Source: Nostoc punctiforme PCC 73102
GTDB taxonomy: Bacteria; Cyanobacteriota; Cyanobacteriia; Cyanobacteriales; Nostocaceae
DNA: 32,000 nucleotides
Direction: 5' to 3'
Assembly: GCF_000020025.1 (NCBI RefSeq)
Contig: NC_010628.1
Location: 2,580,001 to 2,612,000 of the forward strand
Shown here: one piece after another, positions 6,154 to 31,568 of the stretch
Position numbering within the stretch: the stretch's first letter is position 1
How the letters are laid out: each line of letters begins with the position of its first letter
Notes under the pieces: model-generated
The model's database searches: none
The model's input: the letters and a program-made list of their open reading frames with translations, nothing else
What the model was told of the DNA's origin: nothing
Position numbers and translations under genes: made by a program

Positions 6154-6372
6154 TCATTCAGTCCACTGCGGGGCATCTGTCACCAGTTGAGCAAACTTCT
6201 CTGGGCTTGCATCCTCAAACTCCAGCATCACACCCAACCGTTCATCATTTGTTAGGTTACAGAGTAATTCTTTTACCGCATCAACCCCATCCTCCACCCG
6301 CTCAATCGCCAGCCGAGCATAATATTTAACGCGCTTCCACCAAGAACCGCTGATTTCTGCCTCTGTGTCCAT
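6154..6372 (-). CDS. hypothetical small protein (possibly a truncated gene)
   Basis: 72 aa ORF with a G-rich stretch just upstream of the ATG. An in-frame TGA is followed by 19 more open codons running into the IS remnant. No recognisable motif. Confidence 0.3.
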   Translation of the reverse strand: MDTEAEISGSWWKRVKYYARLAIERVEDGVDAVKELLCNLTNDERLGVMLEFEDASPEKFAQLVTDAPQWTE

Positions 6373-9266: not shown

Positions 9267-9338
9267 CTAGTAGTGTACCAAGGTAACTTTGCTAAGTAAA
9301 ACCTCTAATTGGTAAAATAGCCAAAAACGGGGTGTAAC

Positions 9339-14452: not shown

Positions 14453-15363
14453 GAGGGTGTTTGAAAAGTGAAAAGGGGTAAAAATTTATGCCAAACGCCG
14501 CACCATGATCCGAATCATGGCAAGGTAAATAAAATTCTCCGCAGTTTCCGGTAAAAGCTCATAGTCTTTATTCAACCGCCGACATCCAGTTAGCCAACCG
14601 AAAGTACGTTCGACAACCCAACGTTTAGGCAACAAAACAAAGCCTTTGCGTTCACGAGGTCGCAGCACGACTTGTACAACCCATCGGTAAAAATCCATCA
14701 CCCACTGCATAAAAGGGTTGCCATCGTAACCACCATCAACCCAGATAAGATTCAGGCGTGATACCTTGTCTCCCATCTGTTTGACCTTCTGGAGTAAAAG
14801 TTTCCCACCAGAGCGTTCATCGACACTAGCCGCACTCACCAACACCGGCAGTACTAGACCCAAAGTATCAACTGTCAAAAATCGCTTGCGTCCTTTGACC
14901 TTTTTGCCTGCATCGTATCCCACTTGTTGAGTGACCATCGCCGCAGTTTTCACACTTTGACTATCAATGATTGCTTCTGTTGGGCTGACTGCTCGCTCAT
15001 TGTTTACTCTCTCCCAGTCTCTGAGTTGATCATGGATACTTACCCATGTTCCATCTTTTCGCCAATTTCGGAAGTATGTGTATACCGTTTGCCAATTTGG
15101 CAAGTCTCCCGGTAAGTTTCGCCAAGTACATCCTTGCGTCAATACATAGAAAATAGCGTTGATTACTTGCCACATCTCTACCACTCTTGGACGACCACCT
15201 GTTTTGCCTACTGGAATTAACGGTTCTAATAATTCCCATTGGTCTTGGGTCAGGTTACTGGAGTATGCTTTACTCATCGCTCTCAATGGTGCTGTATCTA
15301 CTTATTTACAGCTTATGCCCTGAGAGCTTTTTTTACTCAACTTCCAACTTTTCAAACATCCTC
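14453..15363 (-). mobile_element. IS5-family insertion sequence, apparently intact
   Basis: The terminal inverted repeats are GAGGGTGTTTGAAAAGT (14453-14469) and ACTTTTCAAACATCCTC (15347-15363), matching at 16 of 17 positions. They are flanked by a direct TAA (14450-14452 and 15364-15366). There is a single uninterrupted transposase ORF. Confidence 0.85.
14486..15286 (-). CDS. IS5-family transposase
   Basis: 266 aa. LTQDQWELLEPLIP...GGRPR, DSQSVKT, IWVDGGYDG and VVERTFGWL..RRL.KDYE are hallmark IS5/IS1031-group motifs. The true start may be the second ATG (MSKAYSS, 15277). Confidence 0.9.
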   Translation of the reverse strand: MRAMSKAYSSNLTQDQWELLEPLIPVGKTGGRPRVVEMWQVINAIFYVLTQGCTWRNLPGDLPNWQTVYTYFRNWRKDGTWVSIHDQLRDWERVNNERAVSPTEAIIDSQSVKTAAMVTQQVGYDAGKKVKGRKRFLTVDTLGLVLPVLVSAASVDERSGGKLLLQKVKQMGDKVSRLNLIWVDGGYDGNPFMQWVMDFYRWVVQVVLRPRERKGFVLLPKRWVVERTFGWLTGCRRLNKDYELLPETAENFIYLAMIRIMVRRLA

Positions 15364-15828: not shown

Positions 15829-15890
15829 GTTTCCCTTTGTGAGTAAGTCGAATGGCAATTGCTCAAATCGACACCTCGCCAAAAATTTTT
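15829..15890. promoter_or_regulatory. copy B of the duplicated candidate ECF-type promoter repeat
   Basis: Carries the same TGTCGA-N16-TCGAC on the minus strand (15873-15847). On the plus strand, AGTCGA (15846-15851), N16, then TCGAC (15868-15872) ends 30 nt before the sigma-factor ATG at 15903. Confidence 0.45.
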
Positions 15891-15902
15891 TCAAAGTCAG
15901 CT

Positions 15903-17156
15903 ATGACCTCAAACGCACAATCAGATGTAACCCAAGCGATCGCCTCTCTTTATCGTGCTGAGTGGGGTAGGATTGTCGCCACACTCATCCGGCTGATTGG
16001 GGATTTCGATGTGGCTGAAGAGGCGGCGCAAGAAGCCTTTAGTGTGGCTGTTAATCAGTGGCAGTCCACGGGCATTCCCGATCTCCCCCGTGCGTGGATT
16101 ATCAAAACAGCTCGGTACAAAGCCATCGATCGCCTCCGCCGCCGGACGCGGCTGAAGGAAAAACTAGAATGGTATGCTATGTCTGGGTTAATCCCAACGA
16201 CCGAGGAGCCAACCTACGACACTGATGAAATTCCAGACGATCGGCTACGACTGATCTTCACCTGCTGCCACCCAGCACTGGCGATCGAGGCTCAGGTTGC
16301 TCTGACGCTGCGGATGCTGGGCGGACTTGAGACGGATGAAATTGCACGGGCATTTCTCGTACCCACGGCAACGATGGCGCAACGCCTAGTGCGTGCCAAG
16401 CGCAAGATTCGAGATGCAGGTATTCCCTATAAAGTGCCGGACACAAGCGATCTGTCTGCGCGGGTAGACGCAGTGCTGACAGCGATCTATCTGATTTTCA
16501 ACGAGGGCTACGCGGCGACTAGAGGCGAGACGATGGTGAAAGCTGACCTCTGCACAGAAGCGATTCGGCTGGGTCGTCTCGTGAGGATGTTGATGGCACC
16601 GCAACTGCCCTCAGAAGTGACTGCACTGGTTGCACTGATGTTGCTGCACGACTCCCGGCGCGATGCCCGTTTAGATGAAGCGGGCGATCTGGTGTTGCTC
16701 GAAGATCAGGATCGTCGTCGTTGGAACCAACAGCAGATTGCTGAGGCGTTGCCGCTCGTTGAAGAGGCACTGCGGGGCGGAACTGGCCCGTTTGGAGTGC
16801 AAGCTGCGATCGCGGCACTACATTGTCAGGCGGCACGGGCACAAGAAACGGACTGGTTACAAATTGTCCGCCTCTACGATTTGCTCGAACGCTTGCAGCC
16901 CTCGCCCATTGTGTCGCTAAACCGGGCGGTGGCAATCTCAATGGTAGACAGTCCTCAGACGGCGCTTGGACTTATCGATGAACTTGCCCCTCAGCTTGAT
17001 GGCTACCATCTATTTCACGCCGCCCGTGCCGATTTGCTGCGCCGCATCGGAGCCTCAGCGTCAGCCGCACAGAGCTACGGACTTGCGCTCGTGCTGGTAA
17101 AAAATGACAGCGAACGCCGCTTTCTGGAGCGTCGGCTGCGCGAAGTTCAACCCTAA
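15903..17156 (+). CDS. ECF sigma factor with long C-terminal TPR-like extension (ECF42-type / DUF6596-containing)
   Basis: YRAEWGRIVATLIRLIGDFDVAEEAAQEAF (region 2), LTLRMLGGLETDEIARAFLVPTATMAQRLVRAKRKI (region 4), then IFNEGY and a ~200-aa helical extension. I chose the ATG at 15903 because the tracked start at 15852 lies inside the promoter repeat. Confidence 0.85.
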   Translation: MTSNAQSDVTQAIASLYRAEWGRIVATLIRLIGDFDVAEEAAQEAFSVAVNQWQSTGIPDLPRAWIIKTARYKAIDRLRRRTRLKEKLEWYAMSGLIPTTEEPTYDTDEIPDDRLRLIFTCCHPALAIEAQVALTLRMLGGLETDEIARAFLVPTATMAQRLVRAKRKIRDAGIPYKVPDTSDLSARVDAVLTAIYLIFNEGYAATRGETMVKADLCTEAIRLGRLVRMLMAPQLPSEVTALVALMLLHDSRRDARLDEAGDLVLLEDQDRRRWNQQQIAEALPLVEEALRGGTGPFGVQAAIAALHCQAARAQETDWLQIVRLYDLLERLQPSPIVSLNRAVAISMVDSPQTALGLIDELAPQLDGYHLFHAARADLLRRIGASASAAQSYGLALVLVKNDSERRFLERRLREVQP

Positions 17157-17446: not shown

Positions 17447-18793
17447 TTAGACGGCGAAAGGAAATGTCTCTGGTGGTTCAGTTGTTTCCCAAGAGGGAGT
17501 ACGATCGAGTGGTTGCACTCCCGTAGTGTCATCAATGTGGATTACAGCATCAAACTGGTCAGGTAGTCGAGCGTAGAAATAGTGGCTTTGACGCTCGGTT
17601 TCAGGCAGGTAAATTACACCGATAGCTCGCTCTAATCGCGGTTTTTCTAGTCCTGTAACTGCTTGATTTTCTTGTCGTAAATTCAGTAAAAACTGAGGTA
17701 AACCTACCTCATGAAATAAAGCTTCGTAACTGTCAGATAATGCTGGACGAACTTGTTTCAGTTCAGGTACACCACCCCAATCAGAAGCAGCCGTAACTGT
17801 ACCCGTATAAGTTGTAAAGCCTACAAGTACGGTATCATCACCATATTTATCTCGTACCAATTGCCCGACATTGAGTTCACCTGCAATTCCCATATCGGTT
17901 GCTCGTACATAGCCAAGGTGCGAGTTATGCGCCCAAACCACAATCTTTGAACGGTTTCCTTGCTTATCTAAATGGGCGGCGAGGCGATCTAGAGTTTCTG
18001 CCATGTGGCGATCGCGTATGTTCCAAGACAACACCTGTCCAAGAAACATTGAGCGGTAGTATTCCTCGGCGTTCTTCACCAGTCGGGCGTTCTCTTGGGC
18101 ATAGAAAAACTCGTCTTCTGCAACCTGACCATCACGCCCTGCATACTCCGCAATCCGGCGTTGCAATTCCATCAATTGATTAATAACTTCTTGCTCACAA
18201 GACTCGCTCAGACCAAAAGCAGCCGCATATCCATAAGCTTTGGTATCTTCTTCAAAGTGTTCCAAGCAAGAATATCGGTAGCGTGCCCGTTGTGCAGCTT
18301 CTGGGTCCACTTTGTCCAGGTAAGCAAGAACCTCGCTTATTGAAGTATACATACTGTAAAGGTCAAGCCCGTAAAAACCAACTTTGTTTCTATCCTGCGG
18401 TAAAGCATCATTATACTGACGTAGCTAACCGATGAAGTTCACCACATCTGTGTTGCGCCACATCCAAGTTGGAAAACCCTTGAAGCCTGCGATCGCTTCA
18501 GCCGGTGTAGGGTCGTTATTAATTCCCCGTACATATCGATTAATACGGTAGGCATCCGGCCAGTCTGCCTCCACTGCTATAGCCGTAAAGCCTTTTTCTT
18601 GAATCAGACGCTTAGTAATAAGAGCCCGTTGTTCATAAAATTCATGGGTGCCGTGAGACGCTTCACCAATCAATACAAAGCGGGCATTACCAATTAAATC
18701 CATGAGTGGGTCGTAGTCTTGGGCAGTACCTATCAGTGGATGTGCTACTTCATGTAATGCATCGGTTAGCTGTGTTGCTGTTGCTTCTGACAT
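17447..18793 (-). pseudogene. erythromycin esterase family protein interrupted by one in-frame TAG
   Basis: ORFs 18425-18793 and 17447-18352 are in the same frame. Codons 18353-18424 are open (LRQYNDALPQDRNKVGFYGLDLYS). The only interruption is the TAG at 18425-18427. Family motifs: FVLIGEASHGTHEFY, VVWAHNSHLG. Confidence 0.8.
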
Positions 18794-19800: not shown

Positions 19801-19864
19801 GAGTCTATTCAAAAATCAAATAGGATTCCTATATACCTAAACAATAATAGCCTCAAGCCAATAT

Positions 19865-20122
19865 TTATCTACTGCGGCACGAAGTATTGAATACTAAAAC
19901 TAAAATTATTCCACCTATAAATGAGATGAAAAGTAGCATCCAAAGCATTCTAGCCTTATCGTTGACGATATCGTAAGAATCTTTCCTAAAGCTCAAAGAA
20001 AGCAAGCTAAAAGCAGCAAGACCATTTACTAAAAAAGAAATGCTTAATGCAAGAACTAGAACAGTACACATCACATCGCTTTGTAGATTCAGCATAATTT
20101 TTACTGGTAAAACTAAATACAA
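19865..20122 (-). CDS. hypothetical small membrane protein
   Basis: 85 aa with two strongly hydrophobic segments (CTVLVLALSISFLVNGLAAFSLLSL and LWMLLFISFIGGIILVLVF), followed by a terminator-like hairpin. No homology recognised. Confidence 0.4.
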   Translation of the reverse strand: MYLVLPVKIMLNLQSDVMCTVLVLALSISFLVNGLAAFSLLSLSFRKDSYDIVNDKARMLWMLLFISFIGGIILVLVFNTSCRSR

Positions 20123-20340
20123 TTAATCAGTATATTTAAACACAAAAAAATAGAAATCAAGGGCTAGGGCGATACCGATACTGTAAGGGAGGAATGGCAC
20201 TAAAAAAGCGCAAATCCTTAATATGATTAGCTTTTGGGTGTAGATGAACTTCAATATCATTAGGGGTTTCCAGAAAATAAAATGTCCAGCTGTCGATGAA
20301 AGCCGCTCAGTCCTTGGGTTTAGCCAAAATATATTTGATA

Positions 20341-20455
20341 CGGTGAAGCAGCGCGGTCTTCTCCCAAAGTGAGAGGCTAGCGCCTTTGCGGAGCGTCTAC
20401 GTAGAGAAGGGGGTTTCCCCCATGAGCGACTGCACCAAGCCCGGAGGGGCTGGGC
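20341..20455. repeat. GC-rich structured element embedded in AT-rich intergenic DNA
   Basis: About 115 bp of much higher GC than its flanks. Contains the GGGGGTTTCCCCC palindrome (20409-20421) and CTTCTC...GAGAAG pairing. Its 3' half loosely resembles the 56-nt insert at 10253-10308. Confidence 0.4.
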
Positions 20456-21006
20456 ATTTTATTATTACCTGTAGGTGCCTTAACAGCCGAGTCTGTTGAC
20501 TACTACGGGAACTCTATAACCATAGAGGTCGCCCTCCTCTGTTACCGTACAAAACTTATATGCACTAGTCTTTTGGTACATTCCATAACCTAATTGAGAA
20601 GTTATGCTTGCTCTGTAGACTGATTATTTAGAAATGCGATCGCACTTGGTAATTATTAATATCTTCAGTATTTTTTCGGATACTTTTAACAATAAATGTA
20701 ATATATAGTTAAAATGCTCAATAAATACGTAAGTGCCTCAGAGTACACTATTAATTTTGTTTTATTAATAAATCAACGAGTTATTGCCAGCATAATATGC
20801 AAATAAGTAGAAATAAATAATGAAAAGATGGCGTAAGTGGGTACAGAACGCAAAAATAGTGGATTACGGTTTCCATAACTCACCCTATAACAGTTTCCTC
20901 CTTACTTGAGTCAGTTAATTTTTAAGCGAAATCACCTTTAATTATGGTGAATTTTTAGCATAAACTAAAGTTTTTAATAATCCGATTTATAATTATCCAA
21001 ACATAT

Positions 21007-22926
21007 ATGAAACCTGTATTAATATCGCTTCTTGAACCATTAAATAAACTTTCGGCATCTGAACAAATGGTTTTAGAAAAAATAATGCAACCTGTTAGTT
21101 TTTCAGCCGGAACTTATATATTTAAAGAAGGTTCATTCGCGGATAGCTGTTATATCCTTGAAGAAGGTATAGTACGGATTGAAACAGCATCAGAAAGTAG
21201 TTCTAATTTTGTAGTTAATTATTTGGAAGCTGGGACAATTTTTGGAGAAATAAGCTTATTAGATAAAATGCCTCGTTCGGCTACTGCTTATGCCCAAACA
21301 AATATAATAGCTAAAAAAATACTAATTCAAGAGTTAGAAATATTACTAGAAACTTCGCCAAGAATATTGATTTGTCTCTGGGAAATGTTTAGAAAGGCTG
21401 CTCCACTTGGAGTTCGTTCTTTAAATGAACTTACAATTAAAAAAAATCACTTTGTGATAAACCCAGAAGTGGAAGTAATGTTAGATAAAGCTTTACTAGC
21501 TCAAAAAGAAATTCAAACTTGGTCTGAAGAACGTATAGATGCCTTATTACTGGTAATTGCTTCATCGATTGCACAACATGCCGAATCATTAGCAACAGCA
21601 ACAGTAAAGGCTACTCGTGTTGGGGATATTTTGGATAAAGTTACTAAGAATAAAATTGCTAGCTTAGGTATTTACCGCTCGCTGGTTGGCAAATCTGGAT
21701 GCGGGTTTATCTCGAATAATAAAATTAATAATGTTTGTGAAATAGCAAGTCCAATGGGAATTATTTTTGGAATGATTCCCATGACTAACCCAGTTGCAAC
21801 AGCGGTTTTTAAAGCTTTAATTTGTATAAAAAGTCGTAATGCACTGATTTTAAGTTTCCCACTTTCTACTAAGAATGTTGGCACGTTAGTTTGTGAAATT
21901 ATTCAGGAAGCTTTAATTCGGCAAGATGCACCTGTAGAGCTGATTCAGTGGTTAAAACATCGCAGTTCCCGCGAACAAACAGAAATATTAATGAAGCACA
22001 AAAACGTCTCTTTAATCTTAGCAACAGGAGGTGCGAGCATGGTGAAAGCTGCCTATAGTTCAGGAACTCCGGCAATTGGTGTAGGTCCTGCTAATACTCC
22101 TACCTTAATTTGTGCGGATGCAAATATTCAACATGCTGCCCGCACTATTATTGTAAGTAAATCATTTGATAATGGATTAATTTGTGGTTCTGAACATAAT
22201 TTGATAGTTGATGCACGCGTTAGGAAGAACTTTATTAAAGTATTAGAGCAAGAAGGCGCGGCAATACTTACGCATGAAGAAAAAAGCTACTTTAGCACAG
22301 TTGCTTTTGAAGATAAATCGAATCGATTGCAAGCAAAAATTATTGGTCAGTCAGCGGCTAAAATTGCCGTTATGGCAAATATTAAACGCGATTATCACAT
22401 TAAATTAATTATAGTCCCGAATGAATTTCTAAGTTTAGATAATCCCTATGCTTATGAAAAGATGGCACCGATATTGAGTTTATTTACAGTTCAAAATGAG
22501 ATTGAAGGTATAGACCTTTGTCGGTCGATACTACAGATAGAAGGGAAAGGACATACAGCAATTATACACACGAAAAATAAGGCAGTGGTGAGAAGATTTG
22601 GTTTAGAAATGCCAGCCAGTAGAATATTAGTAAATTCGCCGGGGGTACATGGAATCATAGGTCTTACAAGTGCTTTAGACCCATCCTTCACATTAGGGTG
22701 CGGCACATTTGGGGGAAATTCAACTACTGATAATGTTACTTATAGCAATCTTTTGAATTTAAAACGGGTTGCATATTATCAAGCACCAAAATTTTTAGAC
22801 CCAGAGATATTTAAAAATACATATCCCCAGTGGTTACTGCAATTGCTAAACTTATTAAACTTTTTAAAACTCAATGCTTTAGTGACATTTATATCGCAAC
22901 GAGTTTCGATTCAGTTGAGAAGATAA
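21007..22926 (+). CDS. cyclic-nucleotide-binding domain fused to an acylating (CoA/thioester-dependent) aldehyde dehydrogenase, AdhE-N-terminal/EutE-like
   Basis: The first ~125 residues form a CAP-type cNMP domain with an intact phosphate-binding cassette, FGEISLLDKMPRSATAYA (21241-21294). The rest aligns by eye with the AdhE ALDH domain: IFGMIPMTNPVATAVFKALICIKSRNALILS, LILATGGASMVKAAYSSGTPAIGVGPANTP, the catalytic-Cys motif FDNGLICGSEH (Cys codon 22183-22185), and GCGTFGGNSTTDNV. Confidence 0.85.
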   Translation: MKPVLISLLEPLNKLSASEQMVLEKIMQPVSFSAGTYIFKEGSFADSCYILEEGIVRIETASESSSNFVVNYLEAGTIFGEISLLDKMPRSATAYAQTNIIAKKILIQELEILLETSPRILICLWEMFRKAAPLGVRSLNELTIKKNHFVINPEVEVMLDKALLAQKEIQTWSEERIDALLLVIASSIAQHAESLATATVKATRVGDILDKVTKNKIASLGIYRSLVGKSGCGFISNNKINNVCEIASPMGIIFGMIPMTNPVATAVFKALICIKSRNALILSFPLSTKNVGTLVCEIIQEALIRQDAPVELIQWLKHRSSREQTEILMKHKNVSLILATGGASMVKAAYSSGTPAIGVGPANTPTLICADANIQHAARTIIVSKSFDNGLICGSEHNLIVDARVRKNFIKVLEQEGAAILTHEEKSYFSTVAFEDKSNRLQAKIIGQSAAKIAVMANIKRDYHIKLIIVPNEFLSLDNPYAYEKMAPILSLFTVQNEIEGIDLCRSILQIEGKGHTAIIHTKNKAVVRRFGLEMPASRILVNSPGVHGIIGLTSALDPSFTLGCGTFGGNSTTDNVTYSNLLNLKRVAYYQAPKFLDPEIFKNTYPQWLLQLLNLLNFLKLNALVTFISQRVSIQLRR

Positions 22927-22930
22927 AATT

Positions 22931-25873
22931 ATGAGTAATCCAATACGTGTTGTCTGTCTGGGTGGTGGCTATGTTGCCATGTGGTTAACGAAAGCACTGC
23001 GAAATGCCATTATATATAAAAAAGTTGAGATGATTGTTATCAGTCGGGATAATTATCATACTTATCACGGGTTTATTGCTGAGATGTTGACTGGGAAAAT
23101 TCAACCTAGTCAGGTTGCAAGTCCAGCTAGAAGAATATTTGAACCCGCATATTTTTATAATGCAGAAATTGAAAACATAGACGTTATCAAGCAAGTTATT
23201 ACTACTAGTCGTTCTCTAGATGGAAGGCAATATGAAGTATCTTATGACCATTTGGTGATTTCATTAGGTTCGGTGGATGACTTATCGAGGTATCCCGGTA
23301 TTGCTGAACATGCAATGAAATTAAAATCTTTTAATGACTGTTATAAAATCCGCAATCACATCATTCAAATGTTGGAATTAGCGGAAATTGAAACAGACAC
23401 AGAAGAGCGATCGCGTTTGCTAACTTTTGTAGTTGCTGGAGGGAATTATGGTGGTATTGAAGTTGCAACTGAGTTAGCTGACCATTTCCGTCTTTTAATT
23501 AAAAAGGAGTATCGGCAAATTGCACCTGATGAAATCAAGGTAATAGTTATTCATAGCGGAGAGCGTATTTTATCCGAATTAGTACGACGGTTTCCAGAGT
23601 TGGTAAGGTATGCTGAAAACTTTCTCCATGACGAATTCTCTAATTTAGAAATTATTACTAATACTCGTATTGTTGCCGCGACACCAGAAGAAGCAATACT
23701 TAGTAATGGAGAGCGAATTTCAACTCGGACAATTATTAGTTGTACGGGAACAGCACAATCACCTTTATTAGACAAACTACCGTTGGAACGGGATAAATAC
23801 GGCAAAATTGTTACAGATGAGTTTGTCCGAGTCAAAGGAACAAATAATGTTTGGGCAGGAGGAGATTGTGCTGCGGTTCCTTTACCAACAGGAGGTACTT
23901 GTCCACCCTTAGCTATTTATGCTTTGACTTGTGGCTATCAAATTGGTGGCAATATTCTACGTTCGATCGAAAGTAGAAAGCTAAAAGCTTATAAATTTAC
24001 TGGACTTGGGGATGCTGTTTCTCTGGGAAATCGTCACGCGATCGCACATTTAAAAGGTGTGCCATTATACGGGTTTAATGCTTGGGTTGCTTGGAGAATA
24101 GCTTTGTTTATTTTTGTTCCATCGTGGGAGCGAAAGCTTCGACTTCTAGTCGATTGGTCAATGTGGCCTTTTTTAGGTCGAGATATTATCAGCATGAAAG
24201 TGCAAGAAAAGCAAAGTTTAAAAAAAGCATATTTTCAGGCAGGACAAGTCATTGTTAAACAAGGAGATATTGGTCGTTGCTTGTATTTAATCCGCAATGG
24301 AGAGGTGGAAGTTTTACAAGAAATGTCGAATGGGGAAACAATTATTCAAACTATCGGTTCTGGCGAACACTTTGGTGAAACAAGTGTCATAGAAAATAGT
24401 CCTCACATTGCAACTGTCCGTGCTAAAACAAGCGTGCAATTAGTGGTGATTGATAGAGAAGAAGCATTATTATTGAGTAATTCTTTGTCTGTGTTTAACG
24501 ATACTAATCGCTTATTATCATCCGATACATTTGTCAAAGAAAATATTGATGAATATCATGCGATCGCATCAGACATCCCCAGAGGGAGTATCGCACCAGT
24601 TAACTCGGTCATGTCTGCGACTTTAGAAGCAGCTCCTTGGCAAGAGTTACCATCAAAAGCACCAGCAAGGATTGGTAGCAGCCGCATATTAACAAGATCG
24701 GAATCATCGCAGCCTAGTAAATTCGGTTTTTTGGGTCTAGCGTCAGTAGCTGCACTTATTGCCTTATCAAGTACTACTACCTACCTATTGACCTCTAAAA
24801 AAGTTACTACTCCCGAACCGAAGGACAATGCGATCGCATCCCAAAAGTTAGAAGTAATCGCACTAGGACGCTTGGAACCAGCTGGAGAAATTATATCTGT
24901 AGCTGGTCCTGTGGGGGAACGAATTGGACATTTGGAAGTTGCGGAAGGAGATAACGTTAAAAATGGACAAATTTTAGCTTATTTAGAGAGTTATAACGAA
25001 AGACTGCAAACCCGAAATTTAGCCGCAGCTAAAGTTCGTGAAATCCAAGAACAAATTAAAACTGATACATTACTGCGTCAAGTTGAAGCTGAAAAATCTC
25101 AGTCAGAAATTGAACAAGTTAATACACCCCAACTCCTACAAATTAAATCACAGCAAGCTTTGATTCGCAAAGCAGAAGTGGAATTAAGCGAGGTAGTTAA
25201 AACACGCGATCGCTTTCAATATTTGTCTCAAGAAGGTGCGATCGCCAAACAAGATTTTGATAATAAGCAATTAATTGTCCGTCAAGCTGAAGAAAATCTC
25301 AATCAAGCAAAAGCAACTTTAGAACAGTTAGCTCAAGCTCGCTCATCTAATATTCGCACTGCCCAAACAGCTTTTAAAGCTTCCCAAGTTAATTTAGCAA
25401 GAGTGGACAGTCATAGCGGACTAGAACCTGCCAAAAATAATCTTGCTTTAGGACAAGCTCAGTTGGAACGTTCAATTATTCGCGCTCCTCAAGATGGTAA
25501 AGTTCTCAAAGTTTTTGCCCACACTGGTGAAGCAATTTCTCAAAAAAGTATTTTACAGCTAGGTGATACACAGCAAATGTTTGCTGTTGCAGAAGTATAC
25601 GAAACCGATGTGAGTAAAGTCAAATTTGGTCAGGAGGCAGTTATTACTAGTCCAGCTTTTACTAAACCAATTAAAGGAACTGTTGATAAAGTTGGCAATC
25701 TCGTATTTAAAAATAACACGATCGGCGATGACCCAACAGCAGAAAAAGATGCCCGAATTGTCGAAGTCAAAATTCGTTTACAACAAAGCGAGCAGGTTGC
25801 TAATTTTAGTAATCTTCAAGTCGATGTCCGAATTCAGTTAAATAATACGGGGAAAATAGGTGCGAAACCGTAA
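22931..25873 (+). CDS. fusion protein: type-II NADH dehydrogenase (NDH-2)-like flavoenzyme + cNMP-binding-like domain + TM helix + DevB-family membrane fusion protein
   Basis: About aa 1-425 carry VVCLGGGYVA, VVAGGNYGGIEVATELAD, WAGGDCAAVP and an NDH-2 C-terminal membrane-association region (WRIALFIFVPSWERKLRLLVDW). About aa 430-545 form a CAP-type fold (VKQGDIGRCLYLIRNGEVEV...FGETSVIENSPHIATVRA). The TM helix FGFLGLASVAALIALSSTTTYLL lies at about 24722-24790. The remainder is HlyD/DevB-like (VIALGRLEPAGEIISVAG, coiled coil, IIRAPQDGKVLKV, ARIVEVKIRL). Confidence 0.85.
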   Translation: MSNPIRVVCLGGGYVAMWLTKALRNAIIYKKVEMIVISRDNYHTYHGFIAEMLTGKIQPSQVASPARRIFEPAYFYNAEIENIDVIKQVITTSRSLDGRQYEVSYDHLVISLGSVDDLSRYPGIAEHAMKLKSFNDCYKIRNHIIQMLELAEIETDTEERSRLLTFVVAGGNYGGIEVATELADHFRLLIKKEYRQIAPDEIKVIVIHSGERILSELVRRFPELVRYAENFLHDEFSNLEIITNTRIVAATPEEAILSNGERISTRTIISCTGTAQSPLLDKLPLERDKYGKIVTDEFVRVKGTNNVWAGGDCAAVPLPTGGTCPPLAIYALTCGYQIGGNILRSIESRKLKAYKFTGLGDAVSLGNRHAIAHLKGVPLYGFNAWVAWRIALFIFVPSWERKLRLLVDWSMWPFLGRDIISMKVQEKQSLKKAYFQAGQVIVKQGDIGRCLYLIRNGEVEVLQEMSNGETIIQTIGSGEHFGETSVIENSPHIATVRAKTSVQLVVIDREEALLLSNSLSVFNDTNRLLSSDTFVKENIDEYHAIASDIPRGSIAPVNSVMSATLEAAPWQELPSKAPARIGSSRILTRSESSQPSKFGFLGLASVAALIALSSTTTYLLTSKKVTTPEPKDNAIASQKLEVIALGRLEPAGEIISVAGPVGERIGHLEVAEGDNVKNGQILAYLESYNERLQTRNLAAAKVREIQEQIKTDTLLRQVEAEKSQSEIEQVNTPQLLQIKSQQALIRKAEVELSEVVKTRDRFQYLSQEGAIAKQDFDNKQLIVRQAEENLNQAKATLEQLAQARSSNIRTAQTAFKASQVNLARVDSHSGLEPAKNNLALGQAQLERSIIRAPQDGKVLKVFAHTGEAISQKSILQLGDTQQMFAVAEVYETDVSKVKFGQEAVITSPAFTKPIKGTVDKVGNLVFKNNTIGDDPTAEKDARIVEVKIRLQQSEQVANFSNLQVDVRIQLNNTGKIGAKP

Positions 25874-27020
25874 AAATGCTCAAACTTGGGATGGACCTGC
25901 ATTAGCATGGCTGAATTTAATTCACGCTAAAACTCGATTTTTTGTCGCACTCTCTGCAATTGGTTTCGCGGTTACTCTGATTTTTATGCAGTTGGGATTT
26001 TTAGGCGCTGTACTCAAAACAGCTACTTTCATTTACGATAATCTTAACTTTGACATTGTTTTAATTTCTCCAAAATCGCTCGAAGCTAGCTATACATTAC
26101 CATTTTCTCGGCAACGTTTATATCAAGCAGCAGCAATTCCTGGCGTTGCTTCGGTTGCACCTTTTTATATTTCATTTAAACAATGGCGCAATCCAGAAAC
26201 TAAGTTCACACGTTCAATATTGACAATGGGCTTTAATCCTAAAGATAAAGTATTTAAAGACCCAGAGATTAATAAATATAGACTAGAACTGCAAAGCCAG
26301 GATAAGTTATTAATCAACCGCTATTCACGACCTGAATTTGGTTCACGGCAAGTTGGTTTAAAGACTGAACTGGGAGGTCGTGATATTGAAGTAATTGGAT
26401 TTTTTTCGATGACAAATAGTTTGCGGGCAGATGGGACTGTCGTCATGAACGACCAAAACTTTATTCGTCTTTATACTGGTCGTTCATTTAATGATATTAG
26501 TTTAGGATTAATTAATGTAAACGATCGGGACAATATCAATAAAATTATCCAAAATCTAAAGCAAGTATTACCAAAAGATGTCGAAATTCTAAGCCGCGAA
26601 CAAGCTGGAGAAAGAGATAAAAACTATTGGCTAACATCAACTTCTATCGGCATAATTTTCGGTACAGGGGCAATCATGGCTTTTATTGTTGGAACTGTAA
26701 TAGTTTATCAAGTTCTTTATAGCGATATTACAGAGCATCTCAGCGAATATGCCACATTAAAAGCAATTGGTTACAGTAACTTTAGATTATCTAAAGTAGT
26801 TTTACAAGAAGCAGTTATTCTTGCTTTTCTTGGTTTTATACCTGGATTTTTTATTAGTTCAAGTTTATATATTATAACTCGTTTAGCTACAGGTTTACCA
26901 ATGGAAATGAGTTATGGACGCGCTAGTTTTGTTTTCATATTAGCTAATATTATGTGTTCTATATCTGCTTTATTGTCGTTACGCCAAGTTTTAACAACTG
27001 ACCCCGCTGATGTTTTATAA
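25860..27020 (+). CDS. DevC-family ABC exporter permease (FtsX/MacB-like), paralogue 1
   Basis: 386 aa. The N-terminal LAWLNLIHAKTRFFVALSAIGFAVTLIFMQLGF is DevC-like. It has a large periplasmic loop and a C-terminal FtsX-type 3-TM bundle (LKAIGYSN...). The GTG start overlaps the upstream stop by 14 nt. Confidence 0.85.
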   Translation: MRNRKNAQTWDGPALAWLNLIHAKTRFFVALSAIGFAVTLIFMQLGFLGAVLKTATFIYDNLNFDIVLISPKSLEASYTLPFSRQRLYQAAAIPGVASVAPFYISFKQWRNPETKFTRSILTMGFNPKDKVFKDPEINKYRLELQSQDKLLINRYSRPEFGSRQVGLKTELGGRDIEVIGFFSMTNSLRADGTVVMNDQNFIRLYTGRSFNDISLGLINVNDRDNINKIIQNLKQVLPKDVEILSREQAGERDKNYWLTSTSIGIIFGTGAIMAFIVGTVIVYQVLYSDITEHLSEYATLKAIGYSNFRLSKVVLQEAVILAFLGFIPGFFISSSLYIITRLATGLPMEMSYGRASFVFILANIMCSISALLSLRQVLTTDPADVL

Positions 27021-27022
27021 AT

Positions 27023-28207
27023 ATGCTCTTATTTAAGTTTTCTTTAGCTTGGATTAACTTAGTTCATAATAGACAACGCTTTATCACAGCATTAGGTGCA
27101 GTCGTTTTTGCCGTTGTACTAATGTTTATCCAATTAGGATTTCGGAATGCAATGCTTCAAAGTAGCGTCGAGTTTATCAATCGCTTGGATGCAGATTTAA
27201 TCCTAACTAGCCGTCATCGATACGTTAGCTTTTATGACTATACTTTTAAGAAAAATAGATTATATCAAGTCCAAGGATTTGATGGAGTGCAAGCAGTTTC
27301 ACCATTGTATTTAGCTATTGGGATTTGGAAAAATCAAGGGGGAGTACGTCAACGTCCCATCAGAATTTTTGGATATAACTTAAAATCTCAAACTTTTTCA
27401 ATTCCCGACATTCCTAATTATATTAATGCTTTACAGTTTCCAGATACTGTGATAGCAGATAAAAAATCTCGTCAAGATTTTGGCGATATTACACCAGGAG
27501 TAGAGGTAGAATTACTCGACAGAAAGGTGAAGATTATCGGAAACTTTCAGTTAGGGACTGATTTTGTTGCTGATGGAAACTTAATTACTAGCGACCAGAA
27601 TTTTCTAAGAATATTTCACGGACATCCTTACGGGGATTTTGGTAACATTCGTACTTCCTTAGATGATGTTGATTTTGGATTGATTAAGATTAAATCGCAC
27701 GATTTTAATGTCAAAAACTTGGTAGAAATCCTCAATAAATCTTTGCCTCCAGATGTTGTAGTCATGACTAAAAAAGAATTTATAGAGCAAGATATCAAGT
27801 ATTTTGATAAATCTACTCCCATTGGTTTTATGTTTGGTTTAGGAACAGTAATTGGCTTTTTTGTAGGCATAATTGTTGTTTACAATATTATTTATACAGA
27901 TATTAATAATAACTTACCTCAATACGGCACTCTCAGAGCCATCGGATATTCTAATTCATACTTGTTTGCCATTATTGTATTGCAGTCAGCAATCTTAGCA
28001 ATAATTGGTTTTTTTCCAGGCTTATTTGCAAGCATATTAATTTATCAGGTTATGGCAAAATCTACTGGCTTATTAGTGGAGATGAGTCTTGGTGTTGCCT
28101 CCTTGGTAGCAATTCTCACGATTTTTATGTGCATATTAGCAGGATTAATCGGTGCCAAAAAAATACAAGGACTAGACCCAGCAGAAGTATACGAGCAAAA
28201 AACATGA
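27023..28207 (+). CDS. DevC-family ABC exporter permease, paralogue 2
   Basis: 394 aa with the same architecture (LAWINLVHNRQRFITALGAVVFAVVLMFIQLGF ... LRAIGYSN). Starts 2 nt after the stop of paralogue 1. Confidence 0.85.
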   Translation: MLLFKFSLAWINLVHNRQRFITALGAVVFAVVLMFIQLGFRNAMLQSSVEFINRLDADLILTSRHRYVSFYDYTFKKNRLYQVQGFDGVQAVSPLYLAIGIWKNQGGVRQRPIRIFGYNLKSQTFSIPDIPNYINALQFPDTVIADKKSRQDFGDITPGVEVELLDRKVKIIGNFQLGTDFVADGNLITSDQNFLRIFHGHPYGDFGNIRTSLDDVDFGLIKIKSHDFNVKNLVEILNKSLPPDVVVMTKKEFIEQDIKYFDKSTPIGFMFGLGTVIGFFVGIIVVYNIIYTDINNNLPQYGTLRAIGYSNSYLFAIIVLQSAILAIIGFFPGLFASILIYQVMAKSTGLLVEMSLGVASLVAILTIFMCILAGLIGAKKIQGLDPAEVYEQKT

Positions 28208-29526
28208 GAATTGAACCAATAATTAAAGTTAGCAAAATTAATCATTATTACGGTACGGGACAACTGCGAAAGCAAATCTTGTTTGATATCAGTACAGAAA
28301 TTCAAGCCGGAGAAATTGTGATTGTAACTGGACCTTCGGGTTCGGGAAAAACTACCCTATTAAATTTAATTGGTGCGTTGAGTTCAGTTCAAGAAGGTAG
28401 CTTGACAGTTTTAGGACAAGAGTTAAATCGAGCTAATAATAAACTATTAGAAAATGTCAGAAAAAATATTGGTTTTATATTTCAAGCTCATAATTTACTA
28501 ACTTCTTTAACAGCTAGCCAGAACGTACAAATGTCATTAGCTTTGCATGGGGGTATTTCTAAACGAGAAGCTGAACGAAAAGCGCAAGCAATACTAGAAA
28601 TGGTAGGACTAGGCGAACGGGTTAATTATTATCCCAATCAAATGTCTGGAGGACAAAAACAAAGGGTAGCGATCGCACGCGCTCTTGTTACAAACCCTAG
28701 TGTCATTCTTGCGGACGAACCCACAGCTGCTTTGGATAAAAAAAGCGGGCGAGATGTTGTCGAAATGCTTCAATATCTAGCAAAACAGCAAGGTTGTGCA
28801 ATTTTATTAGTGACTCACGATAACCGCATCCTTGATGTTGCAGATAGAATTATTAGTTTGGAAGATGGATTTCTTACCTCATCAAAAAATACATCTTCAA
28901 ATAATTCTCATCGGTTGGCAAGTTTAAAAGGTGAGTTGATTAATCATGTTGAAGATTTGTCATTAAAAGATTTTTTAAGTTTACTTCAGCAAGTGACAGG
29001 AGAATTTCAAAGTTTTTTAAGCTTAATCGATAATGAAGCTACAGGAAAGTGTTTAGAAGAAATTATCGAGGCAATAACTTTGAAAATTACACATTTATTA
29101 CAAGCCGAGCGAAGCACTATTTTTATAGTAGATGATACTTCTGGAAACTTGTGGTCAGAAATTATTCAGAGTAATCGCAAAAAAATTTTAAAAGTTGGCA
29201 TAACTGCTCATTTTGGTGTTGCTGCTCATGTGGCAGCAACTAGAGAATGCTTGAATATTCCCATAGCTTTGCAAGATTACCGCTATAGCCCAGCAATTGA
29301 CGAACAAACTGGATATCAAACTCGAAATATTTTATGCTTACCAATTTTAAATAGTCAAAGTAAAGTCTTGGCAATTTCACAAGTTTTAAATAAGATTGGT
29401 AATAACTGTTTCGATCGTAAAGACGAGCAGCTATTAGGTGAATTCTCTCAACAGATTTCAGCTATTTTTGATATGTGGTGTCATTTACAAAAATTACATA
29501 AAACCTCAATAAGTGGTAAATATTAA
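28204..29526 (+). CDS. DevA-family ABC ATPase with C-terminal GAF domain (NKFDE-type)
   Basis: The ATG at 28204 overlaps the upstream TGA (ATGA). Walker A GPSGSGKTT, signature MSGGQKQR, Walker B ILADEPT, H-loop VTHD. After about aa 225 comes a GAF-like domain (AERSTIFIVDD..LWS...GVAAHVAATRECLNIP..YRYSPAIDEQTGYQTRNILCLPIL) with NKIGNNCFDRKDE at 29389-29427. The 5' extension in the ORF track (from 28129) lies inside the upstream gene. Confidence 0.85.
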   Translation: MRIEPIIKVSKINHYYGTGQLRKQILFDISTEIQAGEIVIVTGPSGSGKTTLLNLIGALSSVQEGSLTVLGQELNRANNKLLENVRKNIGFIFQAHNLLTSLTASQNVQMSLALHGGISKREAERKAQAILEMVGLGERVNYYPNQMSGGQKQRVAIARALVTNPSVILADEPTAALDKKSGRDVVEMLQYLAKQQGCAILLVTHDNRILDVADRIISLEDGFLTSSKNTSSNNSHRLASLKGELINHVEDLSLKDFLSLLQQVTGEFQSFLSLIDNEATGKCLEEIIEAITLKITHLLQAERSTIFIVDDTSGNLWSEIIQSNRKKILKVGITAHFGVAAHVAATRECLNIPIALQDYRYSPAIDEQTGYQTRNILCLPILNSQSKVLAISQVLNKIGNNCFDRKDEQLLGEFSQQISAIFDMWCHLQKLHKTSISGKY

Positions 29527-29527
29527 C

Positions 29528-31249
29528 ATGATTATTTGCCCGGATTTGGCTTCAGAAAAATTTGCAACATTAATTGAACTGCTCCGCTTTAGAGCATTTT
29601 CGCAACCCGACGAAATAGCTTATACATTTTTACTAGAGGGTGAAAAAGATACAGTTAACTTAACTTATGCACAATTAGATAAACAAGCTCAAACTATTGC
29701 CGCTTATTTGCAATTCAAAGAGCAAGTTCTGCTGTTGTATCCACCGGGCTTAGAGTATATTGCAGCTTTCTTCGGATGTCTGTATGCTGGTGCGATCGCA
29801 GTTCCAGCTTATCCACCTCGTCCAAATCGCTCTTTACAACGACTTCAGTCAATTGTTGCTGATGCAGAGGCTAGTATAGTACTGACGAATACGGCTGTTC
29901 TCTCAAATTTAGAGCGACAGTTAGCGGAATTACCTGATTTAAGAGCATTAAATTGGCTAACTACTGATAGTACTGATAATAATTTAGCCAACAAATGGCA
30001 GCAGCCAGAAATAGATAGCGATTCCCTAGCATTTTTGCAATACACATCAGGTTCTACGGGTACACCCAAGGGAGTAATGGTTAGTCATGGAAATTTACTC
30101 CACAATCAAAAGATGATTCAGGCAGGTTTTCAAAATACAGAGAAAACCATTATTGTTGGCTGGTTGCCCTTATATCATGATATGGGTTTAATTGGTAATG
30201 TACTGCAACCTTTGTACTTGGGTGTTCGCTGTATTCTCATGTCTCCAGTTGCTTTTCTGCAACGTCCAATTCGCTGGCTAGAAGCAATTTCCCGCTACCA
30301 GGGTACTACCAGTGGTGGCCCTAATTTTGCTTTTGACTTGTGTATGCGAAAAGTGACTCCTCAACAACTATCTGCTCTCGATTTAAGCAGTTGGAATGTA
30401 GCTTTTAATGGAGCAGAACCTGTACGTGTAGAAACGATTGAAAAGTTTTCATCCACCTTTGCATCCTGTGGTTTCCGAAAAGAAGCTTTTTATCCTTGTT
30501 ATGGGATGGCAGAAACAACTTTATTTGTTTCTGGTGGAATAAAAACAGATGCACCCGTTTACATCACAGTTCGAGAAGATGAATTAGCGCAAAACCGCAT
30601 CGTTTTAGCACAAGGAACCGAAGGAACTCGAACTTTGGTCGGTTGTGGGCAGACTTACATTAATCAAGAAATTGCGATCGCAAATCCTGAAACTTTAATT
30701 CGCTGTGCTGCTGATGAAGTTGGCGAAATCTGGGTTGCGGGTTCGAGTATTACTCAAGGTTACTGGAATCGTCTCGAACTAACCGAGCAAGTATTTCGGG
30801 CTAATCTTGCTGACTCGAAAAAACAGTTTTTCCGCACGGGAGACTTGGGGTTCCTGCATAATGGTGAATTATTTATTACTGGTCGTCTAAAGGATTTAAT
30901 TATTATTCACGGTCGCAACCATTATCCTCAAGACATTGAGATGACTGTAGCCGATAGTCACGAGGCATTAATACTCGGAGCCGGGGCAGCTTTTACAATT
31001 GATAGCAAAGGGGAAGAAAGATTAGCGATTGTACAAGAAATAGACCGTCATTACAGAAACTTAGATAATGATGCTGTTACCGAAGTGATTAGGACTGCGA
31101 TCGCACAGCAGCATGAATTACAAGTCCATGCGATCGCACTGATAAAAATGGGTAGTATTTGCAAAACGTCGAGTGGCAAAATTCAGCGTCATGCCTGCCG
31201 AAATGCTTTTATTAACGGAACCCTAGAGTTATGGGGTAAAAATAAATAA
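29528..31249 (+). CDS. fatty acyl-AMP ligase (FAAL)
   Basis: The ATG at 29528 lies 1 nt after the upstream stop. LQYTSGSTGTPKGVMVSHGNLLHN, WLPLYHDMGLIG, GGPNFAFDLC, YGMAETT, FRTGDLGF and SSGKIQR are typical of FadD32-like FAALs rather than acyl-CoA synthetases. Confidence 0.85.
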   Translation: MIICPDLASEKFATLIELLRFRAFSQPDEIAYTFLLEGEKDTVNLTYAQLDKQAQTIAAYLQFKEQVLLLYPPGLEYIAAFFGCLYAGAIAVPAYPPRPNRSLQRLQSIVADAEASIVLTNTAVLSNLERQLAELPDLRALNWLTTDSTDNNLANKWQQPEIDSDSLAFLQYTSGSTGTPKGVMVSHGNLLHNQKMIQAGFQNTEKTIIVGWLPLYHDMGLIGNVLQPLYLGVRCILMSPVAFLQRPIRWLEAISRYQGTTSGGPNFAFDLCMRKVTPQQLSALDLSSWNVAFNGAEPVRVETIEKFSSTFASCGFRKEAFYPCYGMAETTLFVSGGIKTDAPVYITVREDELAQNRIVLAQGTEGTRTLVGCGQTYINQEIAIANPETLIRCAADEVGEIWVAGSSITQGYWNRLELTEQVFRANLADSKKQFFRTGDLGFLHNGELFITGRLKDLIIIHGRNHYPQDIEMTVADSHEALILGAGAAFTIDSKGEERLAIVQEIDRHYRNLDNDAVTEVIRTAIAQQHELQVHAIALIKMGSICKTSSGKIQRHACRNAFINGTLELWGKNK

Positions 31250-31307
31250 TTTTGAGCGGTTTTACGTAGATAGACAAAAAACAAATTCAATACATTCTTG
31301 TAGAACA

Positions 31308-31568
31308 ATGAAAAACAAAAATTTAGAAGCAATTCAAGCTTGGTTCATTTCTTACATTGCTGATTTATTAGAAATAGAACCCGCACAGATAGACATCCAT
31401 AAATCCTTTGATAGCTATGGCTTAGATTCAGTTAGTGCTATTACTGTTGTAGGGGATTTAGAAGATTGGTTGGGGTTTAGTATTCCTTCTGAAATAGTTT
31501 ACAAATATCCCAGCATTGAGGCTTTGAGTCAACATTTAGCTCAAAATAACGGTTCTACCGATCCCTGA
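31308..31568 (+). CDS. acyl carrier protein (phosphopantetheine-binding)
   Basis: 86 aa with a GLDSVSAI motif providing the Ser attachment site within a typical ACP helix-II context. Starts 58 nt downstream of the FAAL gene. Confidence 0.8.
   Translation: MKNKNLEAIQAWFISYIADLLEIEPAQIDIHKSFDSYGLDSVSAITVVGDLEDWLGFSIPSEIVYKYPSIEALSQHLAQNNGSTDP

Follow-up and report, generated by a model that had tools for sequence, protein, structure and literature searches.

A gene island of Nostocales that joins a cyclic-nucleotide-domain aldehyde dehydrogenase and NDH-2 pair to a DevBCA-type exporter cassette

Introduction

To our knowledge, few direct targets of cAMP or cGMP beyond the CRP-type regulators are known in filamentous cyanobacteria, and a locus of Nostoc punctiforme PCC 73102, a genetically tractable organism, in which one putative operon encodes three enzymes or transporters that are candidates for such control, raises the question of what such a combination of genes might do and how it came together. 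The locus lies in a stretch of 32,000 nucleotides (contig NC_010628.1, positions 2,580,001 to 2,612,000), which we refer to as the window and in which all coordinates are counted from the first letter. A first-pass annotation, made from the letters alone, described seven packed genes encoding an aldehyde dehydrogenase (ALDH), an NDH-2-type dehydrogenase, the components of a DevBCA-type exporter, a fatty acyl-AMP ligase (FAAL) and an acyl carrier protein (ACP), and proposed that they constitute a single pathway under cyclic-nucleotide control.

We find that the block is best read, from comparison with its relatives, as a weld of two pre-existing, independent and widespread modules rather than as a purpose-built pathway. 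Module A is a pair comprising an ALDH and an NDH-2, each carrying a cyclic-nucleotide (cNMP) domain; module B is a DevB-DevC-DevC-DevA-GAF exporter cassette with a FAAL and an ACP, and the two are joined within a single protein in which NDH-2, a cNMP domain and DevB are fused. Together with a small upstream gene they form an 11.7-kb, eight-gene island that is common to a few Nostocales.

Results and Discussion

Anatomy of the locus

Gene calling on the window gives seven open reading frames (ORFs) tightly packed on the plus strand within 21007-31568. Their spacing in order is 4, -14, 2, -4, 1 and 58 nt, exactly as first described, and independent gene calls on two public contigs (100% and 99% identical) place the gene boundaries identically, so that operon-like packing is borne out as far as gene spacing goes. 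The proposed domain assignments also held up against hidden Markov models: PF00027 (in proteins 1 and 2), PF00171, PF07992, PF01590, PF00501 and PF00550 are all matched, and the TIGR02971, TIGR01185 and TIGR02982 models of DevB, DevC and DevA all score above their curated cut-offs. The gene neighbourhood is likewise kept in relatives, but the first-pass annotation had overlooked an eighth gene and a promoter-like block upstream. The features of the island are as follows.

19865-20095, minus strand: gene for a 76-residue membrane protein with no Pfam match and two hydrophobic segments (MLNLQSDVMCTVLV...), 87-96% identical in Calothrix PCC 7507 and MAG locus L003
20618-20735, plus strand: conserved upstream block, a candidate operon promoter, with TTAACA-18-TAAAAT at 20686-20715
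21007-22926, plus strand: cNMP-ALDH (protein 1), with PF00027 at residues 30-115, the ALDH domain at 153-590 and a tail at 596-639
22931-25873, plus strand: NDH-2-cNMP-DevB triple fusion (protein 2), from Pfam and NCBIfam matches
25860-27020, plus strand: DevC1, a MacB-type permease with an FtsX domain (TIGR01185, 360 bits)
27023-28207, plus strand: DevC2, a permease paralogue (TIGR01185, 315 bits)
28204-29526, plus strand: DevA, an ABC ATPase (residues 6-224; TIGR02982, 352 bits) with a GAF domain (residues 284-420; PF01590, 50.7 bits)
29528-31249, plus strand: FAAL-type AMP-binding enzyme (PF00501 and PF23024)
31308-31568, plus strand: stand-alone ACP (PF00550, 62.7 bits) with a GLDS motif at Ser41, read from the translation

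The block at 20618-20735 (~110 nt) is alignable in three genomes despite diverging surroundings, and its promoter-like hexamers are the top-scoring plus-strand site in a promoter scan. A generic promoter and terminator scan returned the same numbers of sites as in shuffled sequence, and the scan was informative only with conservation added. No RNA elements, tRNAs or terminal repeats were found bounding the island, the sole repeats being chance matches around GCGATCGC. Between the 76-residue gene and the conserved block, ~218 bp at 20262-20480 are missing at the homologous site of Calothrix PCC 7507; this stretch is G+C-rich with a terminator-like hairpin at 20439-20455, and may be a small inserted element.

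The block is inherited as a unit

The seven genes occur in identical order in Calothrix sp. PCC 7507 (95% DNA identity) and in a Nostocales metagenome-assembled genome (MAG; locus L003, 84%), and the flanking genes are unlike in all three genomes that carry the block; because the same order recurs between unrelated flanks, this is not a chance arrangement. DNA homology to Calothrix PCC 7507 extends from ~19855 to 31566 (20908-31566 at 95%), ending at the ACP stop codon. A transposase adjoins the block in Calothrix PCC 7507, and in N. punctiforme the block adjoins an insertion sequence (IS)-rich mosaic occupying the upstream 19 kb. Every one of the seven genes has a dN/dS ratio of 0.13-0.28 when compared with the 84% relative, and no fewer than four genomes have the seven frames uninterrupted. 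Given the constant gene order, the differing flanks and these ratios, we regard the block as a discrete, inherited unit under purifying selection. Within the island, constraint is strongest on the NDH-2 domain (omega 0.09), which suggests that this domain is still doing something demanding; the corresponding values are 0.33 for the cNMP domain of the same protein and 0.14 for the ALDH tail.

The 76-residue gene accompanies the block in all three genomes, that is, in the window, in Calothrix PCC 7507 (L093 7361-7591, minus strand, of loci L093/L094) and in the MAG (L003 7497-7727, plus strand), where it is inverted. We did not find it among the other fetched loci, including other DevBCCA-GAF loci.

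The sequence of protein 2 is that of ACC80743.1 / WP_012408744.1 from N. punctiforme PCC 73102. Calothrix sp. PCC 7507, Desmonostoc muscorum FACHB-395 and N. punctiforme UO1 have proteins no less than 90% identical to it, and additional relatives in further assemblies are 84-87% identical. We considered whether the fusion could be an assembly or frameshift artefact and rejected this, since no fewer than eight assemblies or contigs encode the same protein of 970-980 residues, with identities of 84-100%. That the block is the beginning of a larger polyketide synthase (PKS) or nonribosomal peptide synthetase (NRPS) cluster cut by the window end was similarly rejected: the genes that follow the ACP have no relation to it and lie for the most part on the opposite strand, and the end of the Calothrix homology at the ACP stop codon also speaks against such a continuation.

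Module A: an acylating aldehyde dehydrogenase and an NDH-2 with relatives in other phyla

Protein 1 matches PF00027 with 65.8 bits and PF00171 with 73 bits. The AdhE-N/EutE models are matched with E=1e-134 and 1e-126, but the scores do not reach the equivalog cut-offs (422 bits against 620 for TIGR02518, 448 against 951 for NF010378), and acetaldehyde is therefore not to be assumed as the substrate. Among solved structures the nearest is PDB 5J78 (E=3.9e-95), an acetylating acetaldehyde dehydrogenase, along with AdhE and a succinate-semialdehyde dehydrogenase of the acylating kind. The catalytic cysteine, Cys393, is part of FDNGLIC (SKSFDNGLICGSEH), an instance of the FDNGxxC motif, and is invariant in 12 diverse homologues; the enzyme is predicted to be of the thioester-forming (acylating) AdhE-N/EutE/PduP type. 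In the alignment of the 12 homologues the Leu-rich hydrophobic tail of 44 residues (596-639) is present in the Nostoc clade only.

The NDH-2 part of protein 2 matches PF07992 at 102 bits and NDH2_C at 26.7 bits, slightly under the cut-off of 27.7, and aligns with the solved NDH-2s 9MQY and 4NWZ with E=2e-29. The dinucleotide-binding motifs GGGYVA and AGGNYGG are conserved, and with these two motifs and a membrane-binding C-terminal region this part is a predicted NADH:quinone oxidoreductase.

Relatives of both proteins, cNMP-ALDH (~595 residues) and NDH-2-cNMP (~545 residues), are abundant outside the cyanobacteria at 48-58% identity, with named sources that include Gemmatimonadota, Nocardioides, Pseudonocardia, Chloroflexota and Thermomicrobiales. 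Identity is 80-97% within the Nostocales clade and then falls to 58% or less for the outside relatives, whereas the acylating ALDHs native to other cyanobacteria, among the matches listed in a GTDB scan, are 37-40% identical and lack a cNMP domain. From this gap and the greater distance of the native enzymes we infer that the ALDH/NDH-2 pair was probably acquired horizontally. The GTDB scan served for the non-cyanobacterial contexts only, and the Nostoc loci themselves are not among the matches listed; in a metagenome scan no intermediate, unfused forms in cyanobacteria were confirmed.

In other phyla the ALDH and NDH-2 genes are adjacent, usually in the company of a gene for a cNMP-patatin (NTE-type) lipase, and all three genes of this triad are present at 6 of the 13 cNMP-ALDH loci among the matches listed, most of the others ending at a contig edge. 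The Actinomycetota provide three ALDH/NDH-2/patatin loci (L004, 4428-10551; L014, 10001-16143; and L023), in the first two of which an adenylate/guanylate cyclase-FHA gene adjoins the triad, and the triad recurs in Thermomicrobiales (L015), Verrucomicrobiales (L017), Pseudomonadales (L025) and Albimonas (L018). In Albimonas an AMP-binding (acyl-adenylating) enzyme, 31% identical to the FAAL of the window, stands between ALDH and NDH-2. A natural metagenomic fusion of 1143 residues (P0107, locus L007) has the order NDH-2-cNMP-cNMP-ALDH and is encoded next to a cNMP-patatin gene. A Gemmatimonadales locus (L008) has two NDH-2-cNMP genes and a cNMP-patatin gene with no ALDH within range. We also note that three NDH-2-cNMP relatives of ~911 residues (P0006, P0007 and P0016, the last at L008 5061-7796) have an N-terminal ApbA/2-dehydropantoate-reductase-like domain.

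Module B: an exporter cassette with FAAL and ACP

In the second module the exporter genes are contiguous in the order B-C1-C2-A and are spaced by -14, 2 and -4 nt. The scores against the curated cut-offs are 294 bits against 129 for DevB, 360 and 315 against 290 for the two DevC proteins and 352 against 296 for DevA. Between DevC1 and DevC2 identity is only 37%, and the pair would together form the permease. The DevA-GAF family comprises at least 120 proteins among the matches listed, all 120 with both the ABC and the GAF domain; relatives outside the Nostoc clade are 48-60% identical, and the few named ones among those matches are cyanobacterial.

Each part of the cassette finds a counterpart in cassettes of other cyanobacteria. 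DevB is 53-58% identical to that of other cassettes (58% to a stand-alone DevB), DevC1 is 53-64% identical to the first DevC, DevC2 is 52-60% identical to the second, and DevA-GAF is 54-60% identical. The FAAL is 58% identical to the FAAL-ACP-thioesterase (TE) protein of another Nostoc's DevBCCA-GAF locus. In Nostoc sp. DedSLP04 (L010) the order is ketosynthase (KS)-ACP, FAAL-ACP-TE, lipase, DevB, DevC, DevC and DevA-GAF, and on another contig (L012) an NRPS/PKS gene lies upstream of the same DevB-DevC-DevC-DevA-GAF cassette. Because of this part-by-part orthology, the duplicated DevC, the GAF domain on DevA and the link to a FAAL are ordinary features of a large family of cyanobacterial cassettes, which would export the fatty-acid-derived products of neighbouring lipid natural-product genes. 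DevBCA-like exporters within cyanobacterial lipid gene clusters have been described before, for example BrtGHI of the bartoloside cluster (PMC6836626).

No gene for a TolC-like outer-membrane partner was found in the window or within 10 kb downstream. For the FAAL, subfamily models are the top matches (E=5e-138 to 1e-113), yet all fall below their curated cut-offs; its closest structures are PDB 7R7G (deposited as 'Polyketide synthase', E=7.7e-204) and then the FAALs FadD32, FadD23 and FadD28. A domain search and the gene calls found no thioesterase, ketosynthase or condensation enzyme in the island.

The NDH-2-cNMP-DevB fusion

The only rare component of the island is the protein that joins the two modules, the other parts being common. 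It consists of NDH-2 (residues 1-420), the cNMP domain (434-511), a low-complexity linker (~520-595), an anchor (~594-621) and DevB (642-968). When residues 420-980, covering the cNMP domain, linker, anchor and DevB, were used as a query, a single 50%-identity representative among 1.84 billion, from the Nostocales clade, covered both the cNMP and the DevB parts. The remaining DevB relatives are stand-alone proteins of ~390 residues, apart from a few longer ones with an N-terminal receiver (P0384, P0485, P0513) or FHA domain (P0439, P0506). The existence of these receiver-DevB and FHA-DevB fusions suggests that the cytoplasmic N-terminus of DevB-type adaptors is a recurrent docking point for signalling domains.

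Stand-alone DevB proteins start with a hydrophobic anchor segment, and the sole strongly hydrophobic segment of the fusion (~594-621) lies between the linker and the DevB part. Because this single segment sits before DevB, the NDH-2 and the cNMP fold are predicted to stay cytoplasmic, and the topology of the fusion is coherent. An AlphaFold model built on a 27-sequence alignment has pLDDT values of 75-94 for NDH-2 and 75-87 for the cNMP fold; the model is poor for the linker and the DevB part, and values drop below 50 for residues 517-682.

Cyclic-nucleotide sensor domains

The first-pass annotation proposed three cyclic-nucleotide sensors placed in the enzymes and the ATPase rather than in a transcription factor. 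The domain calls agree with that placement, and two of the three predicted sensors, the ALDH cNMP domain and the DevA GAF of CyaB2/PDE type with its NKFDE motif, look competent; the third, in protein 2, does not fit the claim.

In the phosphate-binding cassette of CAP and PKA, a Glu and an Arg contact the ribose and the phosphate of the ligand. The ALDH cassette, FGE...PRSAT, keeps both as Glu81 and Arg90, which are invariant in the 12-sequence alignment, and the Glu...Arg-Ser pattern is present in 91 of 120 relatives of this domain. The GAF domain of DevA has the motif NKx5Fx3DE (NKIGNNCFDRKDE) at residues 396-408, as do 111 of 121 family members, and its closest structure is the CyaB2 GAF tandem 1YKD (E=2.5e-40), followed by the GAF domains of PDE5, PDE2 and PDE10.

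The cNMP domain of protein 2 is readily recognized (PF00027, 76.4 bits) but does not retain the cassette pair of Glu and Arg. His492 replaces the phosphate-binding Arg in all five Nostocales fusion sequences, and the Glu is changed to Gln in two of them, whereas 111 of 120 relatives keep both residues in the form GE...R(T/S/N/I)AT. Because the ligand residues are lost and yet the domain is under purifying selection (its omega of 0.33 is given above), the fold is probably kept for a structural or an altered regulatory role rather than for canonical cNMP binding.

In the non-cyanobacterial NDH-2-cNMP proteins the cassette reads RRTATV (for example P0040, residues 487-501), and the closest structures to this domain are cGMP-dependent protein kinases (E ~4e-24). 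The cassette and these nearest structures together give a hint that the ligand of the non-cyanobacterial family may be cGMP rather than cAMP.

What might the island do?

The reading that we prefer, and that we put forward tentatively as a little short of evenly balanced, is that the block encodes a cyclic-nucleotide-gated membrane system for fatty-acid activation, thioester/aldehyde interconversion, quinone redox coupling and lipid export. The FAAL would adenylate a free fatty acid and load it onto the ACP, and the ALDH, which is the sole candidate partner for the acyl-ACP because the island has no thioesterase, ketosynthase or condensation enzyme, would interconvert acyl-thioester and fatty aldehyde at the membrane. 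NDH-2 is fused to the cytoplasmic N-terminus of DevB just ahead of the membrane anchor and the ALDH has gained a hydrophobic tail, and these two features would hold both enzymes at the pump, so that the tethered NDH-2 would pass the NADH of the ALDH step to the quinone pool while DevB-C1-C2-A would expel an amphiphilic product through an outer-membrane channel encoded elsewhere. Binding of cAMP or cGMP to the ALDH cNMP domain and to the DevA GAF would set activity post-translationally, and the cNMP fold of NDH-2, its canonical ligand contacts lost, would probably act as a structural or differently tuned regulatory element. The substrates, direction, ligand, coupling and co-transcription in this scheme are what we infer from the observed anatomy, conservation, module ancestry and sensor residues.

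Several observations weigh against this scheme. In other phyla the ALDH/NDH-2 pair occurs without a FAAL, ACP or DevBCA exporter, and the pair therefore need not touch the FAAL product. The closest characterised ALDH relatives use C2-C4 CoA thioesters, and a specificity for long chains or for ACP would be conjectural. The direction of catalysis is a further difficulty, because pairing with, and natural fusion to, an NADH-oxidising NDH-2 argue for an ALDH that produces NADH and works oxidatively; reductive release of an aldehyde would consume NADH and make an NADH-oxidising partner illogical. The earlier proposal that the fatty acid is activated and then converted to an aldehyde thus runs opposite to where the pairing points. 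If the ALDH is oxidative, however, both it and the FAAL would make an acyl-thioester, and the exported product would then be unexplained. Finally, in a 99%-identical strain (JGI 3300055348, on an 8.33-Mb contig) the FAAL gene has a nonsense codon, R130* (L001 8221-9942), with the other six genes open, and since these are intact the FAAL may be dispensable. Of the proposed single pathway, the lipid theme survives in the kinship of the FAAL to a FAAL-ACP-TE encoded beside another DevBCCA-GAF cassette, as does inheritance as a unit; the independent origin of two modules does not favour it.

The main alternative is one in which two separate functions share one island, a cNMP-switched aldehyde-oxidising shunt into the respiratory chain, like that presumed for other phyla, on the one hand and a FAAL, ACP and pump for a lipid on the other, with the other lipid biosynthesis genes elsewhere and the DevB fusion merely anchoring NDH-2 or representing a tolerated insertion accident. 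Module A without module B in at least five phyla, and module B without module A in many cyanobacteria, are what this alternative would lead one to expect; the natural NDH-2-cNMP-cNMP-ALDH fusion fits a transfer of NADH from ALDH to NDH-2, and NDH-2 already has a membrane-binding C-terminal region of its own. We nonetheless consider it unlikely, as the fusion and the seven-gene content are kept at 84-97% identity in several genomes under purifying selection that includes the DevB part and the ALDH tail, and the acyl-adenylating enzyme between ALDH and NDH-2 in Albimonas ties the pair independently to fatty-acid activation. The fusion could instead serve mainly as a redox sensor, with the NADH/NAD+ ratio or the state of the quinone pool relayed through the adaptor N-terminus so that the pump exports its fatty-acid-derived product only in a given redox and cNMP state. 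The receiver-DevB and FHA-DevB proteins of the same adaptor family would be parallels, and a cNMP domain that is selected in spite of having lost its canonical ligand residues would fit, but the strong constraint on NDH-2 and the retention of both dinucleotide motifs and the membrane-binding C-terminus are as in a working enzyme, and we found no precedent in the literature searched for an NDH-2 as a pure sensor; we judge this idea improbable.

The recurrence of a cNMP-patatin gene beside the ALDH/NDH-2 pair raises the idea of membrane-lipid damage control, in which the triad elsewhere would by analogy clear away damaged acyl chains, render lipid aldehydes harmless and restore quinol antioxidants, and in which the Nostoc FAAL and ACP would re-activate the released fatty acids and the pump expel the toxic remainder. 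The NDH-2 domain is weakly similar to the FSP1 quinone reductases (E ~1e-9), and recycling of fatty acids after lipase action is established in cyanobacteria (PMC10114076). This proposal is one of analogy throughout, however; the ALDH belongs to the thioester-forming AdhE/EutE type and not to the hydrolytic type usual for lipid aldehyde detoxification, the Nostoc island has no patatin gene, and we think it a still poorer prospect than the redox sensor. Least of all do we favour a decaying or non-functional acquired block or a cyclic-nucleotide-effector anti-phage system, either of which seems very improbable. The nonsense codon in one strain, the degenerate cNMP cassette and the IS-rich neighbourhood would suit decay, but the low dN/dS ratios of all the genes and the frames intact in several genomes would not. 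PADLOC gives weak matches to Pycsar models through the common cNMP domain; these are at the domain level only (E 1e-4 to 1e-6), the island has no cyclase and no known effector, and we rejected the anti-phage reading.

The gated membrane system described above has a broader extension, which we regard as quite unlikely when taken as a whole: cNMP-ALDH, NDH-2-cNMP and cNMP-patatin would be a phylum-spanning regulon in which cAMP or cGMP acts directly, as an allosteric switch, on lipolysis, on aldehyde/thioester metabolism and on an NADH dehydrogenase of the respiratory chain, and of which the Nostocales would have captured the redox half and hard-wired it to a GAF-gated pump. If this were true, cyclic nucleotide would gate the synthesis, the redox balancing and the export of a fatty-acid-derived signal or envelope lipid, all within one membrane machine.

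Flanking sequences

The remainder of the window upstream of the island contains transposase genes or fragments at 3228-5045, 5642-6190, 8825-10255 and 14486-15286 (DDE_3, DDE_5 and DDE_Tnp_1 with helix-turn-helix parts). An erythromycin-esterase-family gene on the minus strand is split into two ORFs (17447-18352 and 18425-18793) and is probably a pseudogene. A short-chain dehydrogenase/reductase (SDR) gene (27-770) and a gene for an ECF-type sigma factor with DUF6596 (15852-17156) lie in 1-kb stretches of 53% and 57% G+C, the other 1-kb windows having 33-48%, which suggests that these stretches are foreign DNA. A small ORF on the plus strand (2269-2607) shows similarity to hexameric tyrosine-coordinated heme proteins, the HTHP family (E=4.5e-32).

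Novelty and significance

Every part of the island belongs to a known family, and neither the cassette type nor its association with lipid gene clusters is new. In the literature searched, which misses most subscription-journal papers, we found no description of the NDH-2-cNMP-DevB fusion or of this locus, nor of GAF-bearing DevA proteins as a class or of the cNMP ALDH/NDH-2/patatin triad, in keeping with the earlier view that the architecture is not a characterised one. It is unusual for a tripartite pump to bear a whole metabolic enzyme at the cytoplasmic end of its periplasmic adaptor; this suggests that adaptors can bring catalytic or sensory input to a transporter, and the receiver-DevB and FHA-DevB proteins agree with this. 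The cNMP triad, distributed across at least five phyla, is possibly more important than the island itself, and if confirmed it would mean that in bacteria second messengers directly control both lipolysis and a respiratory dehydrogenase.

Comparison with known systems

With the cNMP-ALDH/NDH-2-cNMP/cNMP-patatin triad of Actinomycetota, Chloroflexota, Verrucomicrobiota and Proteobacteria the island shares 50-58% identity and the same domain order, but it lacks the patatin, DevB is attached to its NDH-2, the Arg of the adjoining cNMP domain is gone, and its ALDH has an extra hydrophobic tail. The related pairing in Gemmatimonadota differs again: it has no ALDH, and a cNMP-patatin gene accompanies two NDH-2-cNMP genes. 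Among GAF-containing proteins (CyaB1/CyaB2 and PDE2/5/6/10), CyaB2 is the best solved relative of the DevA GAF, in which the NKFDE motif is present; the island's protein has an ABC ATPase as its output domain in place of a cyclase or phosphodiesterase, and its GAF is single where some relatives have two.

Carboxylic acid reductase and LuxC/LuxE proceed from adenylation through a carrier thioester to NAD(P)H-linked aldehyde formation. The island would follow a comparable logic, by analogy and as a comparison of working principle only: instead of LuxC or an SDR-type R domain it has an acylating ALDH of the AdhE/EutE type as its candidate reductase, and the route in those systems is reductive, whereas the pairing with NDH-2 argues for an oxidative one. 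The FAAL strongly resembles solved FAALs of FAAL-ACP loading systems (cyanobacterial PKS loading, mycobacterial FadD32/FadD28) and like them has a dedicated carrier; here, however, FAAL and ACP are stand-alone proteins with no downstream synthase. Exporters of the BrtGHI type (PMC6836626) also adjoin genes for fatty-acid-derived biosynthesis, a pattern seen again in L010 and L012, but the FAAL and ACP of the island are without a PKS, NRPS or condensing enzyme.

The documented role of the DevBCA family is to export lipids through a TolC-like channel (see also PMC6161253). The DevBCA/HgdBC heterocyst-glycolipid exporter of Anabaena PCC 7120 and MacAB-TolC share with the island the same family models, the B-C-A order and the MacB-type FtsX permease. 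The island departs from DevBCA/HgdBC in being without an outer-membrane partner, in having two DevC paralogues, 37% identical, in place of one, and above all in its signalling and catalytic additions, a C-terminal GAF on DevA and an N-terminal NDH-2 and cNMP fold on DevB.

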